Shown piece after piece: positions 1 through 19,262 of a DNA stretch of 64,000 bases (position 1 is its first letter; each line of letters begins with the position of its first letter). The stretch spans positions 32,001-96,000 of the IMG/VR virus record IMGVR_UViG_3300032289_002472; one strand, given 5' to 3'. The position numbers were made by a program, and so were the translations under genes. Source of the stretch: a virus. The notes beneath the pieces are model-generated. The model did not search any database. It worked only from the letters and a program-made list of their open reading frames with translations, and was not told where the DNA came from.

Positions 1-2756
1 CCATCGCCATCGCCACCAGGAGCACCATTTAGATTAATATAACCAGCATTTCCTCCAGGCTCTATAGCGGAACTGTAGGCCACCGCATCCCCTCCCTTCA
101 TGAAAAGAGATCCATTTGTGCCACCTGTTAACACCTCACCAGTGTTTGTGTTTGTAGTAGTTCTACCCATCGAAATGTTGATGGCGTTAGTATTTGTCAG
201 CCAAGTCGCTCCGAGACCGAGGTTGGTGCGGGTGGTTGCAGCGCCATTAGTGTTATTTTGACTAAAACTTATTGCACCCTGTCCAGCCAGAGTAGTTCCT
301 ATTTCAAGCCCAGTCGCAGTAATCGCAACCGGAAAACCCAAAACTCCAATCCCAAACCTCATCCTTGTTGATGGATTTGTTAATACACTTATCTCAGCAA
401 TGTCAGACCCAGCAGCAGAAATAAAAGACAGTCTTCCATACTCACCAAGACGAAGACCGTTAAATGTCACATTGTCAGTTCCTCCAAGACCAAGGTTGGT
501 TCGGGTCATAGCCTTGTATGACGGCATGTCCGGACCTACGGGATCAGTCACATTTAAAGGCATTCGAAAATCCCAAGTTCCTGAAGACCAACTTGCCACT
601 ATTGAATAGATAGACGGGCCTCCAGTGACGATGTATTTGTTTGTCGTAAACATATCGTTCTGAAATGCCTCGCGGGTAGTGTTCGTAAGCCATGACGCCC
701 CTAGACCGAGGTTGGTGCGGGTAGCGGCAGCATTATTTGTTGTCTCAAAAGATATTGGAACACCAAACTTAAACTCATCTCTACTGATACTTGCTATATT
801 TAAGTTACCATTCTGTAATAATATTCTTGGAGTATATATTGGCTGTCCAGATATTGATCCGTTAAAATAGCTAGTGCCCTTGAATGATATAGTTTTATTT
901 GTTTCTGCAAACTGCCCAGTATTAAAATTAATAAATGGTTCTGTGCCACCAGGACTATCATAAGTTATGTTTAAATTAATATCACGTGCTTCAATCTTTT
1001 GTAATACAGAATTTGGAGCCTCAAAATACCTTTCTGTATTTGTGGTATTTCCAATATACCTCCACCTGGCACCCCATACTCTCGATCCACTAGAGTGAAA
1101 ACTCCATTCGTCAGTTCCTGTGCCAGTACCTGCGGCACTATCCTTGATAAATCCACTATTAGTTTGACCAAGAGTTAAAGTATAAGTAGTTGAACCGAAT
1201 TGCTGAGCAAACCCTAAGTGCATTTTACTAAAAGTAACGTCACTTGAGTTACCCAAACCAAGATTAGTACGAGTAATCCCAGCACCAGTTGAATTAGTAG
1301 AAGCAAATGAAATTGCACCATTTGACCCAATCATTTCTATTCCTGGAGAATAAAATTTACCAGTACCGTCCATTTCGGAAATAACTTGATTACCAAGAAG
1401 AGTAAATTGAATTCTATTGTTAGTGCCCCCCCTTATAGCAAGAGTAGTGGTACCCATTGCATAAGCGTCTCCTTGAATAGCATTTGTAAAAAAAATGCTG
1501 CCAAATGTAACAGAACTTGATGTCCCTAATCCGATGTCGCTTCTAAAGTTCGTGACATTGTTGTTTGTCAACCATGCGGCACCCAAGCCAAGATTAGTGC
1601 GAGTAATTGCGGCACCTGTTCCTGAAAATTGTAAAGGTATGTTGCTTCCTAATTCTATAGAGGTTGGAAACATACTCATTACAGCAATTCCACCAGAAAC
1701 AGCGGTCAATCTTTCTGGGTCAGATATTGAGAAAAATCCTCTAGTTGCGGCTCCAATACTAATTCCAAGGTTTGTAAGACGCCCGCCTGTGACAGTTAAG
1801 TTAGAAAATGAAACAGAAGTTGCTGAATTAAAGCCAAGATTAACTCTAGTACTTTCAGCAATCTCTGGAGTAAAAAAATTAATTGGAGCAAAAGCTGTTA
1901 TTTGATTAGTGGACCAAGAAAGTGCCAAAGAGCCTCCATCAAGTAATCCACCCTGCTCTAAAGAAACTCCTTTATTCCAACCACTAATACCCGTCTCATC
2001 CAAAGTTGATTTATTGGCTGTGTTACTGTTGCTGGCAGTGACACTTAAAAAAGTCATGCTGTTAGTGACTCCCAACCCGAGATTCGTACGAGTAGGGCCA
2101 GCATCATTAAAAGTAATAGATCCTCCTACACCAATATTTAGAGTGGTTGCAGAAAATTCCGTTGCGGTAATTGGACCATTTGTGCCTATTGCCAGCGTAT
2201 TACCTTTATTGTTTATATACAGAATGTCTGTTGATGTAGCTCTATATAAACCTACATCATTTGTTCCAAGCTGAATTGCGTTTGCGGAAGAACTTCCAGA
2301 AGAAACAAGCAAAGTATTAAAGTTAACATTATCGGAAGAACTAAGACCCAAATTTACTTTTGCGCCACTAACGTTAGTTGCTCCCGTTCCTCCACTAGAA
2401 ATTGATAATGTGCCCGATACGTTTGTTGAACTTGTTGGAAGGTTAATAAAATTAGATCCATCGAGCGGAGACCAAGTAACTGGCGAAAGAGACGTTAGTC
2501 TGTAGAAGAGTCCTGTATCTCGAGCATACCCAAGAGAACCTATTTCCAGCCTGGAAGGTGGAATACTTGCCAAACCAGTTAAATCTGCTGCAGTAAATGG
2601 TCCACCCTTGATTTCATTTGCGATAGCCGTCGGAAATGTGTCCTGAACGGCAAAAGGACGTATTGGAGCCGTGACAAGGGTTCCGCCCTGATTGTTCTGA
2701 GCAGATACCGTGCTAACCAACAGCAAGGTTAATAAACTTAATAATCTTAATTTCAT
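1..2756 (-). CDS. Long RTNLGLG-repeat fibre/adhesin-like protein with signal peptide (3' end beyond the window; missing from the ORF track)
   Basis: ATG at 2756 reads MKLRLLSLLTLLLVSTVSAQNNQGG...NEIKGGPFTAADLTGLASIPPSRLEIGSLGYARDTGLFYRLTSLSPVTWSPLDGSNFIN; the same frame reads ...NGAPGGDGD at the left edge; recurrent (T/V)RTNLGLG modules. The + strand PRPRLVRV ORFs are its antisense shadow. Confidence 0.8.
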   Translation of the reverse strand, partial: MKLRLLSLLTLLLVSTVSAQNNQGGTLVTAPIRPFAVQDTFPTAIANEIKGGPFTAADLTGLASIPPSRLEIGSLGYARDTGLFYRLTSLSPVTWSPLDGSNFINLPTSSTNVSGTLSISSGGTGATNVSGAKVNLGLSSSDNVNFNTLLVSSGSSSANAIQLGTNDVGLYRATSTDILYINNKGNTLAIGTNGPITATEFSATTLNIGVGGSITFNDAGPTRTNLGLGVTNSMTFLSVTASNSNTANKSTLDETGISGWNKGVSLEQGGLLDGGSLALSWSTNQITAFAPINFFTPEIAESTRVNLGFNSATSVSFSNLTVTGGRLTNLGISIGAATRGFFSISDPERLTAVSGGIAVMSMFPTSIELGSNIPLQFSGTGAAITRTNLGLGAAWLTNNNVTNFRSDIGLGTSSSVTFGSIFFTNAIQGDAYAMGTTTLAIRGGTNNRIQFTLLGNQVISEMDGTGKFYSPGIEMIGSNGAISFASTNSTGAGITRTNLGLGNSSDVTFSKMHLGFAQQFGSTTYTLTLGQTNSGFIKDSAAGTGTGTDEWSFHSSGSRVWGARWRYIGNTTNTERYFEAPNSVLQKIEARDINLNITYDSPGGTEPFINFNTGQFAETNKTISFKGTSYFNGSISGQPIYTPRILLQNGNLNIASISRDEFKFGVPISFETTNNAAATRTNLGLGASWLTNTTREAFQNDMFTTNKYIVTGGPSIYSIVASWSSGTWDFRMPLNVTDPVGPDMPSYKAMTRTNLGLGGTDNVTFNGLRLGEYGRLSFISAAGSDIAEISVLTNPSTRMRFGIGVLGFPVAITATGLEIGTTLAGQGAISFSQNNTNGAATTRTNLGLGATWLTNTNAINISMGRTTTNTNTGEVLTGGTNGSLFMKGGDAVAYSSAIEPGGNAGYINLNGAPGGDGD

Positions 2757-2759
2757 CGT

Positions 2760-4610
2760 TTAGTTAATTGTAATGGGTATGTTTGATCCAAACTGGATGT
2801 CGGTACTTCTATAAATATAGAACTGAGAAACATTACCCCTAGCATTAGTATAAGAAACTTGTGTATTTGTCCAAGCTGTATTTGGTGCATTATTTACAAT
2901 AAACGATGCTGTACCCCAGCTGACTGGGTACGCAAAGTAAATATATTGTCCACTACCAGAAATGCTTACACTTTTTCCTTTGCTATCCCTAAATTCTCTG
3001 CCTGCTCCTACGCCTGAACTTGTATGAAGATTTCTTATCTGGCTATTATCAAGAGTAGGAGTTGATGCAATCCCCCAAGATAAATAATGCCTAAATGCTA
3101 TTGATGTTTGAGCAGTTACGGTTGATCCTGGTAACCCTGTTCCATCATTTACAGTAAGAGTCCAAGTTGTATCAGTAGTAAATGGAGTATTTGGGAATCC
3201 AATAGGCCCAGGAATGAATGCTGTAGTCGTTCTACTATTAGTATTTATGGGGTTAAATGTTCCCTGAGAGGCAGAAATTGATTGTGAGGCTACTGGAGTG
3301 TTCGTGGGGGAAATTGACCACGACAAACTCACACTCATTATCGTTGAACCAATTTCAACGGTACCAGTCGTATTGCCAAACGAAACTGATGGAGCAACAC
3401 GAGTGAATAGCCCAAAGACATAAGCCCTAGTTGCCGCATCGTTATCATTTACTGGTGTAGCTAAGTTTGTAATTCTTTGCCCTTGAGCATTTAATGAATT
3501 TGAGTTGAATAATGCCTCTTGGAAGCCTGCAGCATTCGTGTTTGTAAGCCCACTCCACCTCAAGCCAAGATTTGTTCTAGTAGCGTTTGCGGCTGGCGCT
3601 AAAGTTCCGGCAGGAATTGGCGCAGCTGCGTTGAATGAAATTCCACTTGAAGATAAAGTAACGCCATCACTTGTCACAACACCAAGTGAACCGTTTGTAG
3701 AAATTGAATACCCATCTCCAACAGTAACCGCCTTAAAGTTTACGTTATTTGTTTCCCCAAGTTCTATTCCAATCCTAAAAAATAATGGATTAGTGTTGGT
3801 AAGGACATTCCAACCCAAACTTAAGTTTGTTCTTGTCTTAGCTGCCGAATCAGTACTAAATTGAATTCCAAATTCTGGATCAATAGTTATACCATCCCAC
3901 ACACTAGAGTTTAGTGTGACCGCACGAAAAGTAACACGATTGCTTTGCCCCAGCCCCAAATTTGATCTAGCTGTAGATACGTCTTGAGCTCCAGTTCCAC
4001 CATTTGCTAAGCTAATTGGATATGTAACTGCTGGATTAGTTCCAGACCCTGGGACATTGATAAAGTTTGACCCATCAATTGAAGCCCACGTCACTGGAGA
4101 AGTAGAGGTAAGTCTATAATATAATCCAGGAGATGTGGCATATCCAAGTGCGCCTACAGTAAGCCTTTCAACAGCAATGTTAGATAAACCCGCCAAATTC
4201 GACGAAGTAAATGGCCCACCTTTTATTTCATTGGAGTCTAACTGAAGAGCAGTCTTGAAAGAAGATGCATTCGAGTTAGTCAATCCACTCCAGGAGAGTC
4301 CGAGGTTAGAACGAGCTGTATCTGCATTGGTCGCACCCGTTCCACCGTTTAATAGTGATACTACCCCATTTGTGGATAGCTTTTGATTTAAAGCTGTTTG
4401 TAAGCCTGTAACATTACTAATAGTAATATTACTTATGGAAATGTTACTTAAGTTTAAAAATGGGGCTATACCAGTAGCTAAGATGTTGGCATTTGAGGTA
4501 GTCAAGAAACTTGATCTAACTTCATCATTGCCATCCAAGATATATTTAATGCTTTGTCCATACAGAAGATTGGGCAAAATGATTAAAAGGGCCAACGTTA
4601 ACTTACGCAT
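2760..4610 (-). CDS. RTNLGLG-repeat fibre/adhesin-like protein with signal peptide
   Basis: MRKLTLALLIILPNLLYG leader; GGTGAT..ARSNLGL and TRTNLGL repeats; RITNLATPVNDNDAATRAYV fibre/adhesin neck motif; beta-rich C-terminal domain. Confidence 0.75.
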   Translation of the reverse strand: MRKLTLALLIILPNLLYGQSIKYILDGNDEVRSSFLTTSNANILATGIAPFLNLSNISISNITISNVTGLQTALNQKLSTNGVVSLLNGGTGATNADTARSNLGLSWSGLTNSNASSFKTALQLDSNEIKGGPFTSSNLAGLSNIAVERLTVGALGYATSPGLYYRLTSTSPVTWASIDGSNFINVPGSGTNPAVTYPISLANGGTGAQDVSTARSNLGLGQSNRVTFRAVTLNSSVWDGITIDPEFGIQFSTDSAAKTRTNLSLGWNVLTNTNPLFFRIGIELGETNNVNFKAVTVGDGYSISTNGSLGVVTSDGVTLSSSGISFNAAAPIPAGTLAPAANATRTNLGLRWSGLTNTNAAGFQEALFNSNSLNAQGQRITNLATPVNDNDAATRAYVFGLFTRVAPSVSFGNTTGTVEIGSTIMSVSLSWSISPTNTPVASQSISASQGTFNPINTNSRTTTAFIPGPIGFPNTPFTTDTTWTLTVNDGTGLPGSTVTAQTSIAFRHYLSWGIASTPTLDNSQIRNLHTSSGVGAGREFRDSKGKSVSISGSGQYIYFAYPVSWGTASFIVNNAPNTAWTNTQVSYTNARGNVSQFYIYRSTDIQFGSNIPITIN

Positions 4611-4945
4611 ATTAACTAATGGTATATTTTATTAAATAAACGAGCAAGCAAGTAATAGTATAATTGTCTGGTAGCTAAAAAAAACTATTTATTGTTTCCC
4701 AAGAACTTTGCGAGCTCCTTCTTAATTGGTAGCTCATCAGAGATCATTGCCATCTTTTCCTGAATTGTATTAATTACGGCATTTATACTGTTGGTCATCA
4801 TCTGACTTCCCTCATTTAATTGTTGTTGCATGCTTTTCAGGTCAGCAGAAGACAGTCCTTCTTGTTTTTTTTCTTTTTTCATACGTTTTGTGATGTTGCA
4901 GCAGCTGGGGTTGGAACCCAATACTGCTGCAAAATCAATAAGTGG

Positions 4946-5857
4946 TCAAGGAATCGATTTTATTTTTTTGATTACGCTTTTGAAGTTACCTCCAGCATAA
5001 GCAATGACATCGTTGCAGATGCAAAAAATCATTTCAATTTCTTTTATAATATCTTTAATATCAGTCTGTTGTCTTTCAGATAGATCCGAACTAGTCTTTT
5101 CAAGAAGCTTGGCTACCACCACAGATAACATCTGTGCTGCACCCTCTAACTCGTGAAGATACTTAACCGTCACTGGATTATCAAACTCTAAGACGATTCC
5201 AGGTGGTGTACCACTGGCTTCAAACAATTGGCGTTCATTAAACTCTGAAAGAATATGGTGCATACTTGTTAATACAGATAATGCTCCATAAATCAATTCA
5301 TGCTCCTTCATTTCTTCGGCAAAGTAATTAAACCCAAGAAACTGCTGAAGAAGATGAGCTGCCGCAGTATTGGCTCCGACACAGTGTTCGACAATCCTTA
5401 TCTGTGGATCGACCACAGGAAAATCTAAACCTTTAATGTAAGAAATTGTGGATTTAAAAAGCTCTGATTCGAATGAATAGAAATTTTCTGTCGCAACTTC
5501 CTCGCCTAAAACAGTTGGCTTTAGTTCATCATCAAACAGCACAAGATCATCGTCATCCAGAATTAAAAGAAAGTCTTCTACCTCTTTGATGATGTTCTCA
5601 ACCTTACTTAAATATTGAATATTATCTAACGTTTCTGGACCAACTAACTCTCCCCATCCAACGCCCATTTTTTCTTCTAGGGCCGTCAAGAAAGCATCAA
5701 AATCTTCGACCATGAACATTGGTATATCTACCAATAAATCTGTGGTCCAGTTAATGAAGCTTGATGCTGGTGGCGTAGATGGGAATGTTTCGTCAACCGT
5801 TGTCTTGATCAGCTCCAGTATCTCTGGGCGTGTCATTATCCCCGTGCTGTTGTTCAT
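4946..5857 (-). CDS. Acidic hypothetical protein; N-terminus weakly resembles an acyl-carrier-protein fold
   Basis: 303-aa ORF in the operon direction; TTDLLVDI...FLTALEEKMGV...IQYLSKVENII has ACP-like spacing but no DSL serine. Confidence 0.55.
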   Translation of the reverse strand: MNNSTGIMTRPEILELIKTTVDETFPSTPPASSFINWTTDLLVDIPMFMVEDFDAFLTALEEKMGVGWGELVGPETLDNIQYLSKVENIIKEVEDFLLILDDDDLVLFDDELKPTVLGEEVATENFYSFESELFKSTISYIKGLDFPVVDPQIRIVEHCVGANTAAAHLLQQFLGFNYFAEEMKEHELIYGALSVLTSMHHILSEFNERQLFEASGTPPGIVLEFDNPVTVKYLHELEGAAQMLSVVVAKLLEKTSSDLSERQQTDIKDIIKEIEMIFCICNDVIAYAGGNFKSVIKKIKSIP

Positions 5858-6104
5858 TGCGTATTTCTTGGTGCCTTAGTGTGCGTTTGTTATATCTATC
5901 TACTTCGTTCTGAACAGCTGCTACAATTTGAATTACTTCCGGTTCGTCGGCGACGATATTTTTATTGTCTTCGTCGACCATAGACCAGCTAGTCATCTTT
6001 CCATCTTCTCCTACAAAATCTATATATCGATAGGTTTTGTCTGAAAAGCTAACCTCGTACTCTTCCTCAATAAGGGTACGTACCGTTTTTGATTTAATTT
6101 CCAT
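5793..6104 (-). CDS. Hypothetical protein
   Basis: ORF coupled to its neighbours. Confidence 0.55.
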   Translation of the reverse strand: MEIKSKTVRTLIEEEYEVSFSDKTYRYIDFVGEDGKMTSWSMVDEDNKNIVADEPEVIQIVAAVQNEVDRYNKRTLRHQEIRNEQQHGDNDTPRDTGADQDNG

Positions 6105-6394
6105 TATGTGTGTGCTTCTAAGTATGTGCGAGTTCTAGCTGCATCGCGTTCATATTCTATCCAGCTGTCGTGCAGCCGTTGCTCTGTTTGATAGTATGCT
6201 ATTTTTTCTGCTAATGTTTGTTTGTCTTGTTCAAAGCTAGATTGATTGCCAAACATTAACTTTGCCAAACTTTGGCCAATTTCAAATTCGCGCTCGACTA
6301 TTTCTTGCGCAACTTTAATTGCCAATGCATTTTTTCCTGCCATCTCTCCCAAGCCTGACTTGATGGCATCCACCAATAGATTGGATTTGTTCAT
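6104..6394 (-). CDS. Hypothetical protein
   Basis: ORF whose stop overlaps the next start. Confidence 0.6.
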   Translation of the reverse strand: MNKSNLLVDAIKSGLGEMAGKNALAIKVAQEIVEREFEIGQSLAKLMFGNQSSFEQDKQTLAEKIAYYQTEQRLHDSWIEYERDAARTRTYLEAHT

Positions 6395-11822: not shown

Positions 11823-12261
11823 AATTTTTATGATTTTCTAAGAGGACATATAGTCACGAACTATCTTTAAAGCCTTTAAATACTTAGAGTGGCTCTCAAG
11901 ATCTTCTTTCTGAAACCATTGAAGTTTCTTTTTTCTTTTCAACTCTTGAATGTCTTTTGAGATGCCCTTAATTTCTGTCTTTAAGTGCTCAAAAACAATT
12001 TTGTCGACCATCTCATAATCGTTTATTTCAATTTTCATTTTTTCTTTTTAGATGTTTCTTTTTGAAGCCTGTCGTGAAGTTTAAAGGTTTTCTTATTTAT
12101 TACTTGAAATGTCTTGTACAATTCTTTGTCAATAAAACAAGAATAGTTGTCTCCAAGATCTTGAGAGATATTAATGTCACCGACTAATTCGAGAGCAATA
12201 TCTCTAAGCTCGTCAAAAGCATCATCCAATTTTTGATTTGTTGTCTTTTTCATAATGTTTA

Positions 12262-12776
12262 ATTAACGCTCTTCCTTAATGGGTTTCTGGAGGAAAATGG
12301 CTCACTTTCTTGGGCTGGTTGTCTTTGTTGACCTGGTTCACTACACAAACATGGGTTACTTGGATTTTTTGATTAGCTGAATTCCTCTGGATTTCTACTG
12401 CCACAATGGCTCACTTGATAGATGTGGTTTGATGATGTTCAATGGTTCACTGGCTCTGTGTGGTTGTCTAGCTTTCGATGGTTAACTGGCGATCTTTGGG
12501 TATCTTGACTTACCGTGGTTCACTCTCATGCAGCGGGTGTCTAACGAATTCTGGTTAACTAATGTTCATCGGGTGTCTATCATCCACAGGTTCACTTATT
12601 CATAATGGGTTTCTAAAAACCAATGGTTCACTGGACCGGTCTGGGTTTCTCATTTGAGATGGTTCACTGATCTTCAGTGGGTGTCTACTTCATTTTGGTT
12701 CGCTGTCGTAATCTGGGTGTCTGCGATGCTGTGGCTCACTATGTCGTGTTGGGTGTCTTATGATACAAGGTAAATT
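12262..12776 (-). repeat. TIGR-like dual-repeat array 1 (14 units of about 36 nt)
   Basis: Plus strand alternates TGGTTCACT-like and TGGGT(G/T)TCT-like 9-mers separated by unique 9-nt spacers (two are 10 nt). First to last loop repeat is 12280 to 12750 = 13x36+2 nt. Minus strand reads AGTGAACCA-N9-AGA(C/A)ACCCA-N9. An in-phase stop and the 10-nt spacers argue against coding. Confidence 0.85.
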
Positions 12777-12779
12777 AAA

Positions 12780-13007
12780 TTAATGAGAGCAGCTACGAAT
12801 TGGACCATTACAACTTTCGCACCAATTAATAATGTCCGATACTCTTTGTTGCTCTGCTTGACTAAGGGGTCTCCCTGAGTCCATTTTTTCCATGGCACTC
12901 TCAAACACCCCATCTGTCTTTTTGTTGTTGCCCCCACTTGCCATAATAGCAATGAAAGCCAAAAACATTCCTGCGAACAGGAAGTATTTAATGTTTTCTT
13001 CGTTCAT
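12780..13007 (-). CDS. Small membrane protein with C-terminal CxxC..C.H, lying between arrays
   Basis: Hydrophobic YFLFAGMFLAFIAIMA; WCESCNGPIRSCSH. Confidence 0.55.
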   Translation of the reverse strand: MNEENIKYFLFAGMFLAFIAIMASGGNNKKTDGVFESAMEKMDSGRPLSQAEQQRVSDIINWCESCNGPIRSCSH

Positions 13008-13148
13008 GTGTTTATTGTATGTCGTGCAATTCTCTTAAAATATCCTCTATGTATTCTTCCCACTCCTCTTTTGTGATAAGCACTTCATGGCCTTCACACA
13101 AGATGTCGTGGATCTCTTTGAGGAGATCGTCAGAGATGTTTAGCTTCA

Positions 13149-13499
13149 TTAAAGCTTGGTAACGTAACTAAGACGGTAAAAAGCCATAGACTCTTTAGCG
13201 TCCACATCAACGAACTTTCCAGAAGAGTTGTCTTTTGAGATAGTTGTCCATTCTCCTGACTCAAGCGACAAGCACTTTTGGATATTTACAGGGTGACTGT
13301 ATCCAGTCCAAGTAATAGTGGTATACCCATCCTTGTGACTAATAAAAGTCTTGGGTGGAGTTACACTAAGGCTCTGAACCGATACAGGCCAATAAATATC
13401 CTGTCTGGGTTGAATCCTTGTTGAGTAGTGGTTGACCAGCAAAAAGCTGGCAATTAATAGCGTAATAAATGCTAAGTATTTTCTAATTTCTAGTTCCAT
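13149..13499 (-). CDS. Membrane-anchored or secreted protein with a Verrucomicrobia-type C-terminal beta domain
   Basis: N-terminal hydrophobic helix; TITW...IQKCLSLESGEWTTI...FVD.....AFYRL pattern. Confidence 0.55.
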   Translation of the reverse strand: MELEIRKYLAFITLLIASFLLVNHYSTRIQPRQDIYWPVSVQSLSVTPPKTFISHKDGYTTITWTGYSHPVNIQKCLSLESGEWTTISKDNSSGKFVDVDAKESMAFYRLSYVTKL

Positions 13500-13610
13500 G
13501 GTGTTATTTTTTTAGTATTGGTAGTTCAGCCATAAAAGGCCCAACACTGAATAGATAATGATGGCTACTATGGCTACATAATATTTGTTAATTTTTGTTT
13601 TCATAATTAA

Positions 13611-13691
13611 TGGGACACTTCACAATCTTGGGTTACTTGCGACTGGTGGTTCGCTGAAGCGGACTGGTTTTCTAGCCTGTGGTGGCTTTTG
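13611..13691 (-). repeat. TIGR-like dual-repeat array 2 (2 units)
   Basis: tgggacact-N9-tgggttact-N9-tggttcgct-N9-tggttttct-N9-tggc on the + strand. Confidence 0.7.
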
Positions 13692-13764
13692 TCGTTATAA
13701 ATGCGACGTCAAATTTATAACAAGTTCTAAGTATTTCTAGCTACTTTAAGTTAGAAATTAATAT

Positions 13765-13936
13765 AGAATCACTAACAATATCTGGGTATCTTTCGTTCAT
13801 CGGTTCACTTTACGGAACGTGGTTTTCTAGGACGTACTGGTTCACTCGATCTGACTGGGTTTATGGGCATCGGTGGTTCACTCTTCAACTCTGGTTTACT
13901 TGGGCTTTTTGGTTCGCTGGGCACCCGTGGTTGTCT
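13765..13936 (-). repeat. TIGR-like dual-repeat array 3 (about 5 units)
   Basis: Same alternating 9-mers (cggttcact, tggttcact, tggttcgct / tgggtatct, tggttttct, tgggtttat, tggttgtct) with unique 9-10-nt spacers. Confidence 0.8.
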
Positions 13937-14077
13937 TTTATTTTTAAGCAAGGTTTTATAAAACCTTAAAAATAAAGCAGTTATGTATTCAGACATGTCT
14001 GAAGATGCAACTGCTTTAAATTGAACTACTTACAAAAAGTAATATTAAACTTTTGTAAGTAGTTTATTTTAAAGTAT

Positions 14078-14590: not shown

Positions 14591-15346
14591 TCAAACTATT
14601 TGTTTAGGTAATCTAGCTTGATTAGCTATCAACAAATTTTTCACTTTAGTGCTACCAAAAAATGCCAACTCAGAGAGCGTCTGAGCCTGCTTTCGGTAAT
14701 TAAGGGCACTTGTCCTATTTCTAGGTTTTAGCCCAATTGTTCTAGGCTTTGACAATATAGAAACCATACTCTTGTTTAAAAGAGGTCCATTATTGTGATA
14801 AAGATCAAGGACTCTATCTATCCACAGTACTTTCTCGCTGTGGTTCTTGGGAAGTATAAGTAACATTCTAGATGCCTTTGCCCATCTAGTGCCCCCATAT
14901 TGATCTTCCCAGGAAACACTCTTGAATGAATCTGCTATCTCTTCAAAGCTCCACTCAAGGGGAAGCTTAAAGACTTGCCGTAAGAACTGAAACTGATTGC
15001 GATACTTTTCTGGAAGATCCTCATACTCTTCAAATAATCCATTCTTGTTTACTTTAAATAAAACATTAACGGCTTTTGAAAGTCTTTTGAGTTTTTTAGA
15101 ACGACCTAAAAGGCCCTTACTGTTTAAATGTCTAAACTCTCTGAGTACGGCGTATTGTAAGGCACTCAACACCATTTCATAGAGTTCATCGACAATTTTC
15201 ACACATGTCTCAGAAACTCTTCTGCCTTTGTTAGCATAGTTCAATGTGGATTCTCCGCAGAATACGTCTAGGGCGGTAATAACATAAAAATCAAAAAAAG
15301 TTTTTAATACATTAATGTTATGATTGGTCATCTTTCTTAATTTCAT
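14591..15346 (-). CDS. Conserved phage hypothetical protein
   Basis: YGGTRW...WIDRVLDLYHNNG motif. Confidence 0.65.
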   Translation of the reverse strand: MKLRKMTNHNINVLKTFFDFYVITALDVFCGESTLNYANKGRRVSETCVKIVDELYEMVLSALQYAVLREFRHLNSKGLLGRSKKLKRLSKAVNVLFKVNKNGLFEEYEDLPEKYRNQFQFLRQVFKLPLEWSFEEIADSFKSVSWEDQYGGTRWAKASRMLLILPKNHSEKVLWIDRVLDLYHNNGPLLNKSMVSILSKPRTIGLKPRNRTSALNYRKQAQTLSELAFFGSTKVKNLLIANQARLPKQIV

Positions 15347-15549: not shown

Positions 15550-16089
15550 TCATTCATTGCAAGAATCTTCCGAAACCGTCACTTTTTTCCTATTGTTGAA
15601 ATAACTAGAACCATAGTGAACAAAGATTTCTTGATCAGCTTTAATTGATTTTCTAGCCACTACATCTCCAATAAGGTTTGCATAATTAAACTTCCATTCA
15701 GTATTGGGGTCGTCTTGATGGTTGTAGATCATCCCGTACCCCAAGACCATAAACATGTGGTGTCCATGAATCTTGCAGCTCATACACTGACACCCTTTGT
15801 CGCTATATAAGTATTTAGTAATTTGTGGATCTCCATGATACTTGCTGCGCCAAGTCATTTGTATCATTGGACATCTTTCAATCAACTCACCAGCTTCGAT
15901 ATCTTCAGTGGCAAAAACTCCCAACCCCATTTGTGGGCTAGACATTCTTACAACTATTTTTTTGGGCTGAGAGTATTCGTTTTTTTCGAACCTCTCGTTT
16001 GGATTAAACTCAGGAGCTTTTTCCTCAGAAGGTTCGGACTTTGAAACTAATGTTTGTGTGTCTACGTTTTCCATATTTTTTACCACCAA
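15550..16089 (-). CDS. SET-domain lysine methyltransferase-like protein
   Basis: GLGVFATEDIEAGE (motif I), YNHQDDPN, ARKSIKADQEIFVHYG; CQCMSC..H insert. Confidence 0.9.
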   Translation of the reverse strand: MVVKNMENVDTQTLVSKSEPSEEKAPEFNPNERFEKNEYSQPKKIVVRMSSPQMGLGVFATEDIEAGELIERCPMIQMTWRSKYHGDPQITKYLYSDKGCQCMSCKIHGHHMFMVLGYGMIYNHQDDPNTEWKFNYANLIGDVVARKSIKADQEIFVHYGSSYFNNRKKVTVSEDSCNE

Positions 16090-17574: not shown

Positions 17575-18264
17575 CTATTTTAATGCATCAACATACATCT
17601 GCTTCAAAGACCTTAAAACACTAATTTCAATATTTTTCCTGAATCTGGAATCTTCGACCTTATCTTGCATATATGCTTGAATCTCGTCATCAACTACTCG
17701 GGCAGCATACCCCATCTCCATTACGTTTTTCTTGAGCTGCTTATATTGAGCGGGTAAACCTTTTTTAATTCTTTTTGTTACCCCATCAACAAGCTTCCTG
17801 TATTTTAGGTCAGTATAGTATTTGGCATGGCGAATCTCGTGATTGAATAGATCGCCCTCTGTCTTGTCAGTTCCTATAATATATCCATTCAGGCAGTTAT
17901 GATATCCGACCTCAATAGTTATATCTGCAAGAATATTAGACAATACTTCGTCGTAAGGGGTCTCATAGGTCTCAGTATTCTGTAATGGCATCCAGTGTTC
18001 ACTGTAACACTTCACAATAACTTCTACCGGAATATTGAATCCTGACCAGTCACCAGGATAACTAAATTTACTGTGATGATTTTTAGCGTACCAATCCATG
18101 TAGTCCCAAATTGAAAAACCTTTATCCCTAAATTTACGATTTGGAGATTCGTAAAATTCTTGAACACGGCAAAACGTCATACCGCGCTCATATTGATCTT
18201 TAATTACTACCGCAAATATACGGGGTTCGATAATGCTGATAGTATAATTAACCAAGTGTTTCAT
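17575..18264 (-). CDS. Conserved phage protein with HExxH motif
   Basis: FCRVQEFYESP, DWSGFNIP, NHEIRHA, DEIQAY. Confidence 0.65.
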   Translation of the reverse strand: MKHLVNYTISIIEPRIFAVVIKDQYERGMTFCRVQEFYESPNRKFRDKGFSIWDYMDWYAKNHHSKFSYPGDWSGFNIPVEVIVKCYSEHWMPLQNTETYETPYDEVLSNILADITIEVGYHNCLNGYIIGTDKTEGDLFNHEIRHAKYYTDLKYRKLVDGVTKRIKKGLPAQYKQLKKNVMEMGYAARVVDDEIQAYMQDKVEDSRFRKNIEISVLRSLKQMYVDALK

Positions 18265-19262
18265 TAGTCTTTATAGTTTCTGTTAATTATTTTAAAGCTG
18301 AGGGGACGACCATTTCCTGAGGTTTTGTAGGTTACTGGACGAACTACAATACCTTCTGCTGGCGTTCCATGAAGCGTAACAGTTGAGTCTGCCAGCTCTT
18401 GAAGAGATTCAATACCAGACTGTACACCATCAAGGGTTTTGAACCCTATCAATGGCACCATATTCATTCTGTTGTTAATACAGAAGTCGGCCATCTCATT
18501 GAAGTCGTAATACTCATAGTCTTTTTCTTTGACCTGAAATACATACAACGTTGGCTGCATCAGCTTGAGTTGATTGCCCTGAATTCCAGGACCCATTAAC
18601 TCTCCCTGAATATATCCACTCCAATCTTCTTGTATTTCGAGCTTCTTGGCAGCAATCCAAAATGCATTTGTATCACTCTCTTTTAAAGAAAGCCTTCTGC
18701 TGCAAACCTGTGTTATTTTCCCCTTTTCAATAATGATTGTACAAGAGCTACCATCTAATTTTTGAGTAATAGTGACTCCACCCTCATTAACTTTGAGGAT
18801 TTCTTCAACTATATCAAAGTTAGAGAGACCATTGTCTTCGTCAGTAGAGGAAATTAAATAGCTAGGAAAAGGTCCTAGCACCTCTCCAGACAAGCAGGCA
18901 GGGATCTCTTTTTCGTATTTCTTAATTCCTAAAGCTCCACCTACGTCTGCTCCTATGTGCCAAGACTGAACATTCTCTGGTAGAACACTCAGTGGCAACA
19001 ATAAGCCTTGAGAGTATTGGCCACGCAACTTTATTGTTTTGAGCCTAATCGATTTTTCTGGATCGTTCTTGTGCGCCAAAAACTCAGACCAATCAGCTGC
19101 TGGGAGAATGGTGTCAATAACGACAAAGACAACCTTATCCCCCACTTTAAATTCGTTTTTTTTAACTATCGACTGCCATCCCAATACTTTAGCTATCTCT
19201 AAACTATCAGCATTGTTGTGTGGCACTATTTCTTTGACTACTTCAATTGAGGCAAGTTTCAT
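18264..19262 (-). CDS. ATP-dependent RNA ligase (Rnl2/DRB0094-like with N-terminal OB domain)
   Basis: HNNADSLEIAKV.GWQ, KLRGQYSQGL; nucleotidyltransferase motifs KLDGSS, QGELMG, EGIVVR, SFKIIN. Confidence 0.9.
   Translation of the reverse strand: MKLASIEVVKEIVPHNNADSLEIAKVLGWQSIVKKNEFKVGDKVVFVVIDTILPAADWSEFLAHKNDPEKSIRLKTIKLRGQYSQGLLLPLSVLPENVQSWHIGADVGGALGIKKYEKEIPACLSGEVLGPFPSYLISSTDEDNGLSNFDIVEEILKVNEGGVTITQKLDGSSCTIIIEKGKITQVCSRRLSLKESDTNAFWIAAKKLEIQEDWSGYIQGELMGPGIQGNQLKLMQPTLYVFQVKEKDYEYYDFNEMADFCINNRMNMVPLIGFKTLDGVQSGIESLQELADSTVTLHGTPAEGIVVRPVTYKTSGNGRPLSFKIINRNYKD

Follow-up and report, generated by a model that had tools for sequence, protein, structure and literature searches.

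Which protein uses the guide arrays of a large phage when no effector gene lies near them? The question is raised by a stretch of 64,000 nucleotides (nt), hereafter the window, which comprises bases 32001–96000 of a 113,067-bp phage contig (IMG/VR record IMGVR_UViG_3300032289_002472, about 72% complete). TIGR-Tas systems were described in 2025. In the definition of Faure et al. (Science 2025, PMC12045711), their dual-repeat arrays have a 36-nt unit, repeated several times, in which two distinct repeats of 8–12 nt alternate and are separated by spacers of about 9 nt. Both repeats carry a box D dinucleotide at the 5' end and CCA (box C) at the 3' end, the loop repeat is A-rich, the edges are truncated at the array ends, and a rho-independent terminator follows the array. 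A first-pass annotation of the window had described three TIGR-type arrays on the minus strand (14, 2 and about 5 units) and no Tas effector, and had proposed that the effector is encoded at another place in the genome and acts in trans, that it is too divergent to spot, or that the arrays serve another role such as decoys. We consider it likely that they are dual-repeat TIGR guide arrays belonging to the single TasA of the phage, whose gene is on the same strand at a distance of about 62 kb. The analysis shows how the arrays are built, that the protein is a TasA and the only one in the contig, that repeats of this type go with this clade of TasA, and that the arrays lie far from tas.

Anatomy of the arrays

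The window arrays A1, A2 and A3 (Table 1) together hold 20–21 units (14 + 2 + 4–5), and the earlier description of them proved correct in kind and in number. Each unit is 36 nt long and is made up of an edge repeat, spacer A, a loop repeat and then spacer B in a strict 18/36-nt pattern, always on the minus strand. Both repeats have 9 nt, with the consensus AGTGAACCA for the edge and AGA(A/C)ACCCA for the loop, and the spacers also have 9 nt, except for three of 10 nt. In the window there are 24 matches to the pattern CCA-N9-AG-NN-A-N-CCA, whereas 0.43 are expected and the maximum in 100 shuffles was 2; all 24 are on the minus strand and inside 12280–13930. Moreover, the arrays end in degenerate edge copies. 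The copy at the 5' end of A1 retains only the 3' part of the edge and the copy at its 3' end only the 5' part, and truncated-edge boundaries of this type are found at both ends of A1, A2 and a further array, A4, and at the 3' end only of A3.

Among the 43 repeat copies of the window arrays, positions 1, 2, 5, 7, 8 and 9 (AG..A.CCA) are conserved in 88–98%, whereas variation is free at positions 3, 4 and 6. CCA is present in 88–98% and AG (box D) in 91–95% of the copies, edge and loop alike. Since the box positions are kept while the others vary, this pattern of conservation argues for ongoing selection for Tas binding. The three arrays were missed by Tandem Repeats Finder because the conserved part makes up only half of each unit, and a Rfam search of the repeats gave no family match.

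A4 was recognized by a motif-chain scan of the whole contig and lies outside the window (Table 1); a hairpin that lacks a U-tract comes after it. It contains an internal tandem duplication of 108 nt, corresponding to three units (L001:5105–5320), of which 98/108 positions are identical, and two spacers already differ between the copies. This sequence suggests that the array has grown by segmental duplication followed by spacer divergence.

A single TasA is encoded outside the window

The tas gene was reached through the repeats. IMG/VR was scanned for two consecutive units with N spacers, which gave the same repeats in seven other viral contigs, and in four of the seven the gene adjoining the array is a homologue of the open reading frame (ORF) 108284–109522 of the present contig. 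These four array-carrying phage contigs otherwise share almost nothing with this phage. Counted from its true start codon, the ATG at contig 109465, the protein has 393 amino acids (aa). As a single sequence, the ORF matches TasR (PDB 9MTY, E 6e-9) and TasH (E 5e-7), and a family profile of 46 sequences matches TasR 9MTY with an E-value of 3.9e-24 and TasH with 6e-20, without any other match in PDB. More than 780 homologues were found. The protein also scores 112.2 bits against NCBIfam NF052498 (TIGR_Tas_endo, "TIGR-Tas system RNA-guided endonuclease"; cut-off 100). In addition, its AlphaFold model has a predicted local distance difference test score (pLDDT) of 85 and a predicted template modelling score of 0.80, and a Foldseek search with this model returned TasH/TasR cryo-EM chains at all of ranks 1–10 (probability 1.00), followed by Nop5 and IS621.

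A search of the whole contig for Nop and Tas proteins had been advised in the first-pass annotation. The Tas profile gave one match only, which lies outside the window and confirms that the window itself holds no Tas effector. Pfam Nop (PF01798) matched nothing in the whole contig, a misleading negative because the Tas clade is too distant from Pfam Nop. Several ORFs closer to the arrays were checked with Pfam, PHROGs, NCBIfam, PDB, ESM Atlas and hhalign against the Tas profile. The 251-aa ORF at window 14591–15346 and the array neighbours at contig 4316–4786 and 5698–6195 were rejected as effectors, since they show no relation to Tas.

The Tas profile begins at about residue 122 of TasR, and in the phage protein only about 23 residues stand ahead of this point, all of them helical and forming one long N-terminal helix. 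The protein is thus a nuclease-free TasA without RuvC or HNH; a Pfam search found no nuclease domain in it. Relative to the usual members of about 286 aa, it has two insertions, of 49 and 37 aa. In the C-terminal loop the Tyr is conserved (Y393, equivalent to Y289 of SpTasH) and the motif Y-x3-KLG is kept; Y393, and Met400 and His402 mentioned below, are given in the numbering of the longer ORF. An identical TasA is encoded on a 168-kb contig, which also carries the identical form of the ParB-like protein described below, and more diverged relatives have TasA proteins of 71–87% identity. Scans with single proteins and with a seven-sequence alignment of close homologues found nothing close in viral, metagenome or genome collections.

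Pairing of the arrays with TasA

In the 80 IMG/VR loci that encode members of the clade, an array with a 36-nt period (lag-36 signal) adjoins tas in at least 65, and most of the other 15 have a weaker signal there. The consensus of these tas-adjoining arrays is AGA(A/C)A(A/C)CCA together with A(G/A)CGAG(T/C)CA or AGTGAACCA, with 9-nt spacers. Every loop variant of the window arrays is found among them, and the AG...CCA boxes are likewise present in the arrays beside TasA homologues. Furthermore, in five relatives with the same repeats all the arrays are beside tas. The present contig is organized in another way: the DNA up to 6 kb from tas holds no array, its lag-36 maximum of 0.43 being equal to the background (102–112.7 kb), and the distance to tas is 62 kb for the window arrays and 103 kb for A4. 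With no array within 6 kb of tas, the predicted guides must act in trans. The first of the three earlier proposals, an effector elsewhere in the genome, is thereby borne out by the single TasA gene, and given this gene the options of an unrecognizable effector and of decoys become unnecessary.

The tas gene is flanked by terminator hairpins. Behind its terminator there is also a non-coding stretch of about 500 nt with hairpins (L003:11770–12284), which has no Rfam match and no 36-nt periodicity.

Genetic surroundings and transcription signals

Table 1. Coordinates of the arrays, the tas gene and neighbouring features.
Feature	Position	Strand	Description
TIGR array A1	window 12262–12776	minus	5'-truncated edge (AATTTACCT), 14 units, 3'-truncated edge (AGCGTTAAT)
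TIGR array A2	window 13611–13691	minus	2 units between truncated edges, 5' CAAAAGCCA and 3' AGTGTCCCA
TIGR array A3	window 13765–13936	minus	loop repeat first, 4 full units, 3'-truncated edge (AGTGATTCT)
TIGR array A4	contig 4879–5427	minus	15 almost perfect units; 26.6 kb before window start
tas (TasA, 393 aa)	contig 108284–109465 (L003:12284–13465)	minus	sole Tas match in contig; 12.3 kb past window end
three co-oriented small ORFs	window 12780–13499	minus	between A2 and A1; no match to any known family
116-aa ORF	window 13149–13499	minus	N-terminal transmembrane helix
45-aa ORF	window 13012–13149	minus	acidic
75-aa ORF	window 12780–13007	minus	transmembrane helix and C-terminal Cys motif
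intergenic motif TAGCCATA(A/G)TA	window 13566–13576	minus	between A2 and the small ORFs; -10-like CATAAT

The contig encodes a DnaE-type polymerase, DnaB, UvsX, tail fibres, a split RNA-polymerase beta-like gene and 12 tRNAs. A1 begins 4 nt past the stop of ORF 12780–13007 and ends 9 nt short of the ATG of ORF 12035–12253. Considering these short distances and the lack of a terminator in between, A1 is probably co-transcribed with the three small ORFs in an operon. No rho-independent terminator was found after A1, A2 or A3, and A1 continues straight into the next ORF, while terminator-like hairpins are located at 13950–14075 upstream of A3.

The intergenic motif in Table 1 has further minus-strand copies at contig 5605–5614, 6242–6252, 18276–18284 and 108208–108218, among them one 180 nt upstream of A4 and one directly past the tas terminator. 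It is a candidate phage promoter. Two of the copies share a similarity of about 40 nt (...ATGGAT..ATTTT..TATCC), and the motif often stands directly behind a terminator hairpin. CA-rich leaders (aaacacATG) without a Shine-Dalgarno sequence precede the gene starts at window 12253, 13007 and 13499 and that of tas (L003:13465), which is a weak hint of a host not relying on such pairing, for example a member of the Bacteroidota. A few kb upstream of the window arrays there are also genes for a SET-domain protein (window 15550–16089, minus strand; Pfam E 7e-13) and for an RNA ligase with an OB-fold domain (window 18264–19262, minus strand).

Around A4, a 277-aa protein with an invariant G-x-H-R motif is encoded 1.7 kb downstream of the array (contig 2384–3217, minus strand). 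Its model, of low confidence (pLDDT 64), gave weak but consistent matches to the folds of ParB, Noc, KorB and sulfiredoxin (Foldseek E 0.01–0.3), and judged by this model it may correspond to the ParB-like partner reported for some TasA systems, or be just a ParB-like protein of the phage. At the right end of the contig, a collagen-like Gly-Pro-X coding repeat (L003:16803–17067) has a 36-nt period and is located in a segment with a G+C content (GC) of 53%, compared with about 39% elsewhere. The lag-36 signal at this end was rejected as an array, as it is produced by this coding repeat.

Spacer sequences and targets

The first-pass annotation had noted that several spacers are GC-rich and had taken this as pointing to foreign targets. 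The observation holds for the six units of A2 and A3 (49–58%), whereas the spacers of A1 (41%) and A4 (39%) are close to the contig (39%), and the argument for foreign targets is weak, given that the overall spacer GC equals that of the phage. The search with joined spacers that it had proposed, made here in the contig and in related phage DNA, gave nothing above mis-paired controls. For self-targeting, 30 guides were joined in both geometries, as spacer A with the reverse complement of spacer B and in the opposite order, and compared with the array-masked contig; the best matches had 2–5 mismatches, the same as in the mis-paired and wrong-geometry controls. Both geometries were also compared with related phage DNA totalling 1.18 Mb (80 tas loci and five complete contigs), again without any excess over the controls. 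Two guides of A4 have 8 nt in common when one of them is reverse-complemented; the "tiled targets" assembled from this pair, a 28-mer and a 26-mer, are not matched exactly anywhere in IMG/VR. The duplicated A4 guide has exact 18-mer matches in IMG/VR, 4 and 11 depending on the geometry and in three independent contexts each, which were rejected as chance, since no other guide matches those contigs. Overlaps from spacer to spacer are no commoner than in shuffles.

Alternative explanations

Several findings weigh against assigning the window arrays to this TasA. A1–A3 are more degenerate than A4, with damaged boxes in several copies (AGTGAACCT, AGACACCCG, AGCTAATCA, ATCAAACCA) and three 10-nt spacers. 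No recognizable sigma-70 promoter or intrinsic terminator flanks them, where the sigma-70 scan gave fewer sites than shuffles and is uninformative for this phage. In TasA, the His of the Tyr/His processing dyad, which is typical of dual-repeat systems, is shifted: H296 of SpTasH aligns to Met400, and His402, which is invariant in 46 homologues, stands two residues on. No spacer target was found in the contig, in related phage DNA or in the exact searches of IMG/VR. Finally, the contig is incomplete, and the missing part could hold a second tas or more arrays. If the degeneracy is given full weight, A1–A3 would be decaying relics that were split from tas by a rearrangement and are unused, and only the clean A4 would supply guides. 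All nine repeat positions match in 28 of the 31 A4 copies but in a minority of the A1–A3 copies, some boxes are broken, and the blocks are interrupted by ORFs. However, the degeneracy lies in the non-box positions 3, 4 and 6, each block retains canonical truncated-edge boundaries, the arrays directly beside tas in relatives are equally degenerate, and TIGR repeats are poorly conserved in general (bioRxiv 10.64898/2026.09.09.750476). We therefore hold decay to be improbable.

The incompleteness of the contig bears on another possibility, in which the arrays serve not the TasA at 108 kb but another Tas, encoded in the missing 28% or so of the genome or by a co-infecting element. A contig of 40 kb (G003) indeed has the same repeats without tas, and the same repeat type accompanies TasA proteins that are only 30–38% identical. 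On the other hand, the 113 kb contain one intact TasA and no other, and it is of the clade that uses exactly these repeats. Nothing requires a second protein, which makes this possibility very improbable. Hardly any weight can be given to the idea that the repeat is a peptide repeat, a CRISPR-like array or some other tandem repeat without guide function. One plus-strand frame of A4 does stay open over 172 codons, and ORFs over the arrays of different phages match each other in BLASTP. Yet A1 has 5–16 stop codons per frame in all six frames, the 10-nt spacers break the frame, and the conservation tracks RNA box positions instead of codons, in line with the first-pass annotation, which had ruled out a peptide. 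Repeats of 9 nt are also far from the 25–36 nt of CRISPR, and no Rfam family speaks for another kind of tandem repeat. Guide arrays used by the remote TasA thus stay our preferred reading.

Proposed mechanism and significance

The transcription, processing, DNA binding and repression proposed here are deduced from published work on relatives, namely the array definition, 36-nt guide RNAs (tigRNAs) and two-strand targeting (PMC12045711), self-processing of SpTasH by Y289/H296 (PMC13421893) and TasA as an RNA-guided repressor (bioRxiv 10.64898/2026.09.09.750476). We assume that the arrays would be transcribed along with the surrounding minus-strand genes, A1 probably within a polycistronic transcript with the three small ORFs. 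TasA dimers would recognize the AG at the box D position and the CCA (box C) ends of both repeats, and the precursor would be cut within the edge repeats to give 36-nt tigRNAs, probably by the C-terminal Tyr/His loop of TasA. The nuclease-free complex would then bind an 18-bp site, using both strands, without cutting it, and DNA-bound TasA would most likely repress transcription.

A more speculative extension is that large phages regularly keep functional TIGR-TasA arrays at a distance from tas, with guide blocks scattered and embedded in small-gene operons, so that the excision of tigRNAs would also cut those mRNAs. We see a small chance for it. If true, the same stretch of DNA would be both a guide source and a processing switch for the neighbouring genes, and the published "arrayless" tas loci would also be explained.

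Published surveys have sought arrays only around tas; of 20,096 tas loci, about a third yielded arrays. The TIGR papers searched do not mention orphan or remote TIGR arrays. The present phage is a clean counter-example to the assumption of adjacency: its one TasA gene has no array within 6 kb, and the cognate guides, about 36 in number, are spread over four blocks at two loci tens of kilobases from it. Consequently, array searches need to be genome-wide. Guides and effector can be transcribed separately, possibly at different stages of infection, and arrays can grow by segmental duplication, as suggested by A4.

Comparison with known systems

The kind of system is already known and no new mechanism is revealed; it is the dispersed layout that is unusual. 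The closest description is the dual-repeat TIGR-TasA type, e.g. FpTIGR of Flavonifractor plautii (Faure et al., PMC12045711). Shared with it are the 36-nt units, in which edge and loop repeats are combined with two 9-nt spacers, the CCA that ends both repeats, the truncated edges, the solo effector of coiled coil and Nop domain without nuclease, and the occurrence in phages. The main difference is that the array of that type is located directly upstream and/or downstream of tas, while the arrays here are 62 and 103 kb from it, in at least four blocks at two loci. In addition, the window blocks are interleaved with small ORFs and have no terminator behind them, box D is AG here while the published box D is UG (TasR arrays), and TasA has the insertions of 49 and 37 aa. 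The TasA-TasParB subtype (Faure et al. 2025, fig. S14) has a parB-like gene that shares an operon with tasA, whereas no parB-like gene adjoins tas in the present phage.

As for the proteins, MbTasA and the catalytically dead TasR repressors (Xu et al. 2026, bioRxiv 10.64898/2026.09.09.750476) are likewise nuclease-free Tas proteins, and by analogy guide-dependent DNA binding and repression would be expected here. That study annotated arrays only around tas and left open the guide source of "arrayless" tas. SpTasH of Salicola phage CGphi29 (PDB 9W03/9W04/21KL) shares the Nop core (profile E 6e-20) and the Y-x3-KLG loop and is the best structural match; unlike it, the TasA here has no HNH, and the position of His296 is occupied by Met, with the invariant His two residues later. 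Among deposited phage records, the sole relative found is ORF034 of the Ralstonia jumbo phage phiRSL1 (NC_010811, annotated as "transposase"), with 30.5% identity over 97% to TasA. It is followed by an unannotated gap of 1.4 kb filled with AGTGANCC / AGACACCC dual repeats (NC_010811: 13180–15643). Judged from these sequence features, a cultured jumbo phage carries an unannotated TIGR-Tas locus, in which the array adjoins the gene, while here it is remote.

A CRISPR array has a single repeat of 25–36 nt, spacers of like length and cas genes, whereas the arrays here combine two repeats of 9 nt with spacers of 9 nt. Nor are they related to orphan CRISPR arrays remote from cas in repeat architecture or protein family, and adaptation genes play no part. 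What the two have in common is the layout, in which an effector whose gene is at another place in the genome uses the guide arrays in trans.

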